Positions 8,432-9,785 of a DNA stretch of 64,000 nucleotides are shown piece after piece (the first letter of the stretch is position 1; the number at the start of each line of letters is the position of its first letter). Location of the stretch: positions 67,086,001 to 67,150,000 of the forward strand of contig NC_087436.1 of NCBI RefSeq assembly GCF_036321535.1, read 5' to 3'. Source of the stretch: Camelus dromedarius. Lineage: Eukaryota. The position numbers and the translations under genes were made by a program. Below the pieces are notes generated by a model that saw only the letters and a list, made by a program, of their open reading frames with translations, had not been told where the DNA came from and did not search any database.

Positions 8432-8732
8432 AAAATAGTATTCTGTAGCAAAACTTTTAGTAAGTTAGTAAATAAGTAATAACAGTGGTAACAAATAACA
8501 TTAATGGAATGCTTAGTACATACTTAGCATAACATTAGATATTTTGAGTCATTTATTCTTCACAATAAATTATAGATGATGTCACTGAGGTAGAACAACC
8601 TACCCCAATGTCACAGCTAATGAATAGTGAATTCAGAATATGAATCCAGAAAAGATGGTCCTAGAGACCCATTTCTTACACATTACATTATTCTCCACTA
8701 AAGGCTTCAATCTCTCTTCCCTCATTTGATTA
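8432..8732 (+). repeat. Left copy of the ~300-bp direct repeat flanking the RPS3 retrocopy; contains a MIR fragment
   Basis: Aligns by eye along its full length to 9464-9785, with about 25 substitutions and 3 indels. Begins at TT/AAAA (8430-8435). Confidence 0.93.
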
Positions 8733-9467
8733 GGGATCAGACTCAGGGGTGCTGAGTAACCTGCTGTTTTCCTTTTGCCCTATCCTGTTGTGTAGTGGGG
8801 GCCAGAGGAACCATAGCTAGGTCTTAACTATGGCATCTTCTAGGTGTACTGGCATCAAGGTAAAGATCATGCTGCTTTGGGATCCAACTGGTAAGACTGG
8901 CCCTAAGAAGCCCCTGCCTGACCATGTGAGCGTTGTGGAGCCCAGAGATGAAATACTGCCCACTACCCCCATCTCTGAACAGAAGGGAGGGAAGACAGAG
9001 CCACCAGCCATGCCCTAGCCAGTACTCACAGCAAAATAGGGTCTTCTTGGCAGCTGGATCTAGAGTCTGGATGTTGCTCTATAAAGACCTTTAAAAAATT
9101 TTTAAAAGGCATGTGGCCTGACTAGACTCTACATCCAGAATCCACACTGAGGGTCATGTCACCCATGGAAGCACTGCATGATGGAGTCCTAAAGCTATCT
9201 TGTTTGTAATGTTTCTCCGCTTCCCCTGGAATCCTCTTGGTTTTAACTGTGCTTGGGAGATGAGGGCCAGAACAGGAAGACTCAAGCAGAAGTAACCAGA
9301 CAAATATCCTGAGGGTGGGTAAATCTGGTGAGGGTAAAGGCTGATTGCTAACAGGACAGCACCTTGATTGACTCACTTGGAGTTCGGGGTTATAGGTTTA
9401 GAAGAGGGACATTTATGATGGTTTTCTGTATTACACAGAAAAATAAACATAATGGCTATTAAAAAAA
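8733..9467 (+). pseudogene. RPS3: 5'-truncated, semi-processed retrocopy of 40S ribosomal protein S3: intron-like 3' end, last coding exon, long 3' UTR and short A tail
   Basis: 8844-9033 translates to [60 protein letters not shown], which is the RPS3 C-terminus. It has a 1-nt deletion near 8851 and a CAG>TAG stop at 9016-9018. The recognisable RPS3 3' UTR follows directly (GGTCTTCTTGGCAGCTG...GTCTGGATGTTGCTCT.TAAAGACCTTT). AATAAA at 9442-9447, A7 at 9461-9467. Confidence 0.93.
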
Positions 9468-9785
9468 TAGTTTTTGTAGGAAAACTTTTAGTAAGTTAGT
9501 AAATAAGTAGTAAACAGTGGTAACAAATAACATTAATGGAATGTTTAATATATACTCAGCACAACACTAGATATTTTGAGTTACTTATTCTTCACAATAA
9601 ACTATTATTATCCTAAATTTATAGATGAGGTCATTGAGGTAGAATAACCTACCCCAATGTCACAGCTAATGAATGGTGAATTCAGAATATGAATCCAGAA
9701 AAGATGGTCCTAGAGACCAATTTCTTAAACATTGCACTTTTTATTTTCCACTAAAGGCCTCAATCTTTCTCCCCTCATTTAATCA
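9464..9785 (+). repeat. Right copy of the ~300-bp direct repeat flanking the RPS3 retrocopy
   Basis: AAAATAGTTTTTGTAGGAAAACTTTTAGTAAGTTAG...CCCTCATTTAATCA matches 8432-8732. It has ~18 extra nt (CTATTATTATCCTAAAT) that the left copy lacks. Confidence 0.93.

Follow-up and report, generated by a model that had tools for sequence, protein, structure and literature searches.

A dead RPS3 fragment between ~320-bp direct repeats, the likely scar of one old L1-driven insertion

A disabled RPS3 fragment lies between long direct repeats

In the window (i.e., the whole 64-kb stretch of DNA analysed here), two direct repeats at 8432-8732 and 9464-9785 bracket a dead piece of RPS3 on the plus strand. From left to right, the locus comprises the following features:

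8430-8435, plus strand: TT/AAAA site of the L1-endonuclease type; the left repeat begins at the slash, 8432
8432-8732, plus strand: left copy of the duplicated unit; its 3' end is uncertain within 8727-8732
8733-8843, plus strand: likely 3' end of RPS3 intron 5, downstream of SNORD15B; 111 nt, up to 116
8844-9039, plus strand: last coding exon of RPS3, about residues 180-243, by protein comparison
9040-9460, plus strand: likely RPS3 exon 7 with a long 3' UTR, apparently joined without intron 6
9461-9467, plus strand: run of seven A (A7), made of 3 nt that may be a tail remnant and 4 nt that open the right copy
9464-9785, plus strand: right copy of the unit; 317-322 nt long

The insert itself occupies 8733-9463 (731 nt). 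The initial annotation placed it exactly between the repeats, which we can corroborate, but its length of 735 bp had counted in the four A residues shared with the right copy. Positions 8851-9033 encode RPS3 residues 183-243, matching mammalian uS3, with seven amino-acid changes. One of these creates a premature stop (9016-9018), and the native stop codon at 9034-9036 no longer exists. Near the start of the exon, the acceptor is separated from codon 183 by 7 nt rather than 8, indicating a 1-nt deletion. These residues, together with the premature stop and the deletion, mark the insert as a copy of a cellular protein-coding gene that has been disabled. Judged by its reading frame, the copy is dead and its coding content is the last coding exon alone; it shows no sign of function. 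The earlier identification as an RPS3 retrocopy thus stands with respect to the gene (residues 183-243), but not as a plain mRNA copy, since the insert is 5'-truncated to the last coding exon, ahead of which it holds what is very likely the end of intron 5. Relatives of RPS3 were collected by a metagenome scan, which yielded 80 loci with a best protein identity of 83% and no mammal-like RPS3 locus among them.

Sequencing runs were queried with 138 sampled words of 8733-10100, covering the insert, the right copy and the right flank. Fifteen of the 24 listed runs (one organism, six studies) contain 0.94-0.97 of these words, which shows that all three parts are genuine DNA. Five RNA-type runs share 0.09-0.25 of the words, which is no evidence for expression, and four rows gave 0.00.

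The insert probably begins with the end of a snoRNA-hosting intron

The stretch ahead of the exon (8733-8843) holds no RPS3 coding sequence in any frame and terminates with a branch-like CTTAAC and a TAG acceptor. At the position equivalent to 8843/8844, an intron ends in 40 of 79 animal RPS3 loci, the other 39 being coding there; the count excludes one of the 80 loci (L051), whose match begins at residue 2. Because the stretch is non-coding, ends like an acceptor and coincides with an intron in 40 of the 79 loci, we are confident that it originates from RPS3 intron 5.

This intron is the home of SNORD15B. The snoRNA sits in RPS3 intron 5 in mouse (PMC12667501), RPS3 is given as its host gene by a second source (PMC8176728 supplement), and in human it lies in intron 5, the penultimate of six RPS3 introns and 468 nt long (PMC10234308 Supplementary Table S1). 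According to the same table, human SNORD15B is 146 nt long, its 3' end is separated from exon 6 by 107 nt, and the energy predicted for its terminal stem is -16.8 kcal/mol. Because the human snoRNA ends 107 nt before the acceptor and the insert keeps 111-116 nt of intron, the 5' end of the insert likely coincides with the 3' edge of SNORD15B, the distance being human rather than camelid and open to indels. Rfam gave no SNORD15 match at the insert at the gathering score, and none either when E values of up to 10 were accepted or a 5' cut at 8728 was permitted. Across the window, nothing reached the gathering score, and six and three weak matches lay far below it and were taken as chance; a search of 20 of the 80 RPS3-relative loci gave no match.

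Were the end placed at random in the 468-nt intron, the chance of its lying no more than 4, 9 or 15 nt from any chosen point would be 1.9, 4.1 or 6.6%, respectively, and roughly double that if only the snoRNA plus the downstream intron (253 nt) is considered. We regard the closeness of the 5' end to the SNORD15B edge as suggestive rather than as proof.

The 3' part may derive from a spliced and polyadenylated template

Positions 9040-9110 resemble what we take to be mammalian RPS3 exon 7. Donor-like motifs (GTRAG, GTAA, GTGA or GTRWG) are absent from 9034-9120, whereas in three of the 40 intron-type animal loci (L001-L003) a splice donor lies 12 nt from where the stop codon begins. Given this absence, unlike L001-L003, together with the likeness to exon 7, we infer that intron 6 was probably spliced out of the template. 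On a separate note, the donor position in L001-L003 suggests that a 3' UTR intron right after the stop is old and that mammals share it.

The insert extends ~420 nt past the stop to its only AATAAA (9442-9447), followed by 13 nt and the A7 run. Only 3 nt of the run lie outside the repeat, and TT stands ahead of it, as at the target. A decayed tail, a microhomology junction and priming from a genomic A-run would fit A7 equally well. The right copy had been described as starting inside an A tail downstream of AATAAA; the position is as described, and the evidence for a tail is weaker, amounting to 3 nt beyond the repeat.

We also noticed an imperfect inverted repeat at 9053-9140, predicted to form a long hairpin around the A/T-rich 9088-9109 (-31.8 kcal/mol, z = -2.4; 4 of 200 shuffles were equally stable). 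The proximal RPS3 poly(A) signal would, we presume, be expected around 9088-9109, where no AATAAA is found. Were the parent gene to carry the hairpin as well, its transcripts might more readily extend to the distal signal. An 18-nt word from the UTR matched nine prokaryotic contigs without extension beyond 21 nt, which we attribute to chance, and returned no viral contigs and no literature matches.

The flanking repeat has the properties of a long target duplication

Local alignment (blastn) pairs 8432-8730 with 9464-9783 (E = 7e-104), the top self-match in the window, confirming the repeats that had been reported at 8432-8732 and 9464-9785. At the coordinates of that report, the copies differ by 24 substitutions in 300 columns (20 transitions, 4 transversions). 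Leaving out the uncertain last 5 nt, there are 22 substitutions in 295 columns (18 transitions, i.e., 82%, and 4 transversions; K2P 0.080), spread evenly along the unit (KS P = 0.78). The copies are ~92% identical, with four alignment gaps of 1, 1, 17 and 4 nt; the original tally of about 25 substitutions, or about 8%, was therefore about right, but that of three indels was one short.

Depending on the copy and the edge, the duplicated repeat measures 296-322 bp. The left copy lacks 17 nt and 4 nt that the right copy has, and two TAAA repeats flank the 17 nt where they are present, an arrangement that suggests slippage-type loss on the left. Because this stretch looks lost from the left copy, the ancestral duplicated unit was probably near 320 bp. 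The unit resembles an old MIR-type SINE relic. A third copy is absent from the window, where the next-best tile score was 44 against shuffled maxima of 39-50, and a MIR identity did not emerge from copies within the window.

As the initial annotation had it, the left copy starts at the slash of TT/AAAA (8430-8435). A randomly chosen boundary has a 0.8% chance of lying no more than 2 nt from TTAAAA, and a 3.3% chance for a relaxed site; an AATAAA ending 10-30 nt upstream is found for 3.2% of window positions. We found no shared word of at least 5 nt between 8705-8745 and 9450-9495, so that a nested short duplication, named at the outset as evidence that would count against a long one, is absent from the insert ends; three other nestings gave best matches of 5-8 nt, which were offset or were the repeat's own start. 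The locus does not carry a short target duplication (about 7-40 bp), with none nested and a repeat of 296-322 bp. It has instead a duplication of >100 bp that starts at an endonuclease-type site, with the insert exactly between the copies.

The two copies and the exon also offer a means of dating. Repeat divergence amounts to 3.7% per copy (22/295), and exon decay to 5.1-5.5% (seven amino-acid changes over 127-137 nonsynonymous sites), assuming that the camelid parent protein equals the mammalian PDB sequences and that each amino-acid change reflects one substitution. The clocks do not differ (rate-ratio P = 0.34-0.48), although the test is weak, the exon 95% interval being 2-11%, and a two-fold age gap is compatible with it. 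Equal divergence of repeat and exon is what a single event predicts, and the comparison, at low power, fits a duplication of the same age as the insert. If assumed rates of 1.0-2.2 × 10−9 substitutions per site per year hold, the event dates to 18-40 million years ago.

A single L1-driven insertion is the favored reading

We consider it probable that one L1-driven germline insertion made both the RPS3 piece and the ~320-bp duplication, from an RNA that had kept the end of intron 5. Taken part by part, it is very probable that the duplication was created by the insertion itself and quite probable that L1 primed it. We lean towards a SNORD15B-headed RNA as the template, and we hold it less likely than not that a snoRNP stalled reverse transcription.

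The course of events may be pictured as follows. An RPS3 RNA with intron 5 kept, intron 6 spliced and its 3' end cleaved at the distal AATAAA would have been bound by L1 ORF2p, the template probably being a SNORD15B-headed polyadenylated RNA of the kind that yields Type-3 snoRNA retroposons. ORF2p would have nicked the bottom strand at 8431/8432, as the TT/AAAA edge suggests, and primed cDNA synthesis on the A-tail. The cDNA would have run through exons 7 and 6 into the end of the intron; the copy as found ends 111-116 nt ahead of exon 6 and includes no snoRNA. Reverse transcription might have stalled at the snoRNA terminal stem or its bound proteins rather than stopped at a random point, which we put forward with some reserve. 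The cDNA end would then have joined the top strand ~320 bp downstream, through a distant nick or a replication-type bypass, such that the intervening stretch was duplicated. The repeat copies and the exon have since decayed at rates that do not differ. The long target duplication via L1 that had been proposed for this locus has thus passed the tests internal to the window, short of proof. Several observations sit less comfortably with it: the A-run reaches just 3 nt beyond the repeat, the splicing of intron 6 draws on an absent motif and on a resemblance to exon 7, and nearly all duplications of inherited human L1 insertions are reported as <30 bp, with an argument that large ones are peculiar to HeLa (PMC4805530 appendix).

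A bolder version holds that an assembled SNORD15B C/D snoRNP stalled the reverse transcriptase, thereby setting the 5' end at the 3' edge of the snoRNA and leaving a long-lived branched intermediate, and that a distant break or replication bypass then produced the ~320-bp duplication; that the stall caused the long duplication is, in our view, unlikely. If this were true, protein-bound template blocks would cause large target duplications in normal germlines, forming a hidden class that surveys reaching 30-50 bp miss and that would be enriched among retrocopies ending at snoRNA edges. A linkage between the snoRNA-edge stall and the long duplication cannot be shown from one locus.

The template invites comparison with the Type-3 snoRNA retroposons from the penultimate intron of RPL10, which are described as common, truncated ones included (Weber 2006, PMC1687206). 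The truncated forms are ascribed there to arrest of reverse transcription, and the duplications measure 7-19 bp. Like these, the RPS3 insert seems to combine the downstream part of a penultimate, snoRNA-hosting ribosomal-protein intron with the last exons and an A-rich end. Unlike them, it contains no snoRNA sequence, and its duplication is ~320 bp rather than 7-19 bp. Because these two defining features fail, we do not class it as a Type-3 member, although its template may have worked like that of one. The host snoRNA here is the C/D box SNORD15B, whereas Weber 2006 searched H/ACA snoRNAs and scaRNAs (PMC1687206), and 'U15' is absent from the main text of that paper.

An alternative that overlaps our favored reading retains the L1 insertion with its long duplication and replaces the template with an ordinary intron-retaining RPS3 RNA, truncated at random at its 5' end near the snoRNA edge. 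In its favor, the insert is free of snoRNA bases; retrocopies are commonly 5'-truncated (10.1101/2020.06.07.139212), and the coincidence chance of 2-7% is modest and based on the human distance. However, no intron has been kept but the one that hosts the snoRNA, next to last in the gene, and that layout gave Type-3 retroposons for 30 of 42 human RPL10 pseudogenes (PMC1687206); we hold random truncation to be somewhat unlikely.

It is improbable that the locus arose by DNA-level capture, in which break repair with microhomology copied a genomic RPS3 fragment or a cDNA and duplicated 320 bp with no L1 endonuclease involved. The retained intron, a tail of just 3 nt and a possible TT-AAAA microhomology at the 3' junction would agree with such an origin, and the splicing of intron 6 is putative. 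Against it, the TT/AAAA edge and the AATAAA spacing would each arise by chance at ~1-3%, no donor motif occurs past the stop codon, and tailless inserts are also found among L1 events in the cells that produce long duplications (PMC5223499).

A tandem duplication, older or younger than the retrocopy, with the latter landing at or being rearranged to its junction, is a model that has been raised for the 111-450 bp flanks of HERV-K (PMC5488345 Discussion). A two-fold age gap would be compatible with our clock test, but the model requires the insert to lie exactly at the junction without a short duplication of its own, of which none was found, and the junction to be an L1 site by chance; with the repeat and exon clocks also in agreement, we think it very unlikely. 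We give hardly any credence to two independent old SINE insertions or an assembly artefact, despite the MIR likeness of the unit and a raw-data word query that lay to the right of the left copy, because the identity of 92% runs over the whole unit with sharp ends where other window stretches are no better than shuffles, an artefact should leave near-identical copies rather than 22 substitutions (82% transitions), and the insert and right copy are present in runs of six studies.

Long target duplications in known systems

For large L1 target duplications, Servant et al. 2017 cite Gilbert 2002/2005 and Symer 2002. Among engineered L1 insertions, no more than 10% of those in HeLa have duplications of >100 bp, against 57-91% of those in repair-deficient lines, some of the inserts being tailless (PMC5223499). 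The RPS3 locus is like the L1 insertions of Servant et al. 2017 in its endonuclease-type first nick and in an insert that lies between copies of >100 bp, whereas those derive from a de novo L1 reporter in cultured cells and ours would be a cellular RNA mobilised in trans in the germline long ago. Tandem duplications of 1-10 kb associated with L1 in tumours and clones have been ascribed to break-induced replication (10.1101/2024.12.14.628481); these are somatic, larger and from p53-null or cancer cells, in contrast to the germline duplication of ~320 bp here. Germline sites of HERV-K (HML-2) show duplications of 111, 250 and a putative 450 bp (Kahyo et al. 2017, PMC5488345), and thus share with the RPS3 locus a germline insertion between direct repeats of hundreds of bases. 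HERV-K, however, is an integrase-driven provirus whose empty alleles were sequenced, while for RPS3 L1-type priming is proposed.

Genome surveys have looked for short duplications. One collected only those of 5-30 bp (PMC2912911), and a retrocopy survey with 50-bp flanks reported a range of 7-40 bp, with 20-40% lacking a duplication (10.1101/2020.06.07.139212). De novo Alu insertions in sperm carried duplications of 8-18 nt (PMC12633430). In the open literature that we searched, surveys reach 30-50 bp only, and a duplication of >100 bp was not reported for any germline mRNA retrocopy. Long duplications, described at the outset as rare, are less unprecedented than was implied, with cases of >100 bp on record in cultured cells, tumours and germline HERV-K.

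Second-strand cleavage or priming in L1 insertion is still an open question. If our reading is true, a germline case in trans would show that large duplications arise and are retained in the normal germlines of mammals, and that surveys of genomes overlook them by design (5-30 bp, 50-bp flanks). The locus is real, rare and explicable by known machinery, with two uncommon features in one dead pseudogene; it was probably left by a single L1-driven event long ago, its target duplication being about twenty times the usual length. It motivates asking whether long flanking repeats go together with snoRNA-edge 5' ends or with missing tails.

Other features of the window

No host gene was identified in the window from long open reading frames or from a crude exon scan. 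By eye, 13755-13922 shows a pyrimidine-rich acceptor and a GTAAG donor on the minus strand and may represent an exon of a gene on that strand, although it is absent from the output of the crude exon scan; if it is an exon, the RPS3 retrocopy would lie antisense to a host gene.

At 17687-17746 and 35204-35263 lie two short SINE copies of tRNA-like type, 90% identical and ending in A-rich tails. They are likely camelid vic-1. The name vic-1 is used for a camel SINE (PMC3531059). Stretches of ~325 nt at 14119-14440 and 17346-17671, 70% alike, surround a GC-richer 2.9-kb interior, so that 14119-17671 looks like an old degenerate LTR element, with the vic-1-like SINE just past the second stretch. 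Direct repeats at 40587-40756 and 41448-41636 are ~69% alike and are probably old dispersed-repeat fragments. Towards the end of the window (62000-64000), GC rises to 48% and several long open frames overlap near 62645-63449, a region that may represent a CpG-island promoter.
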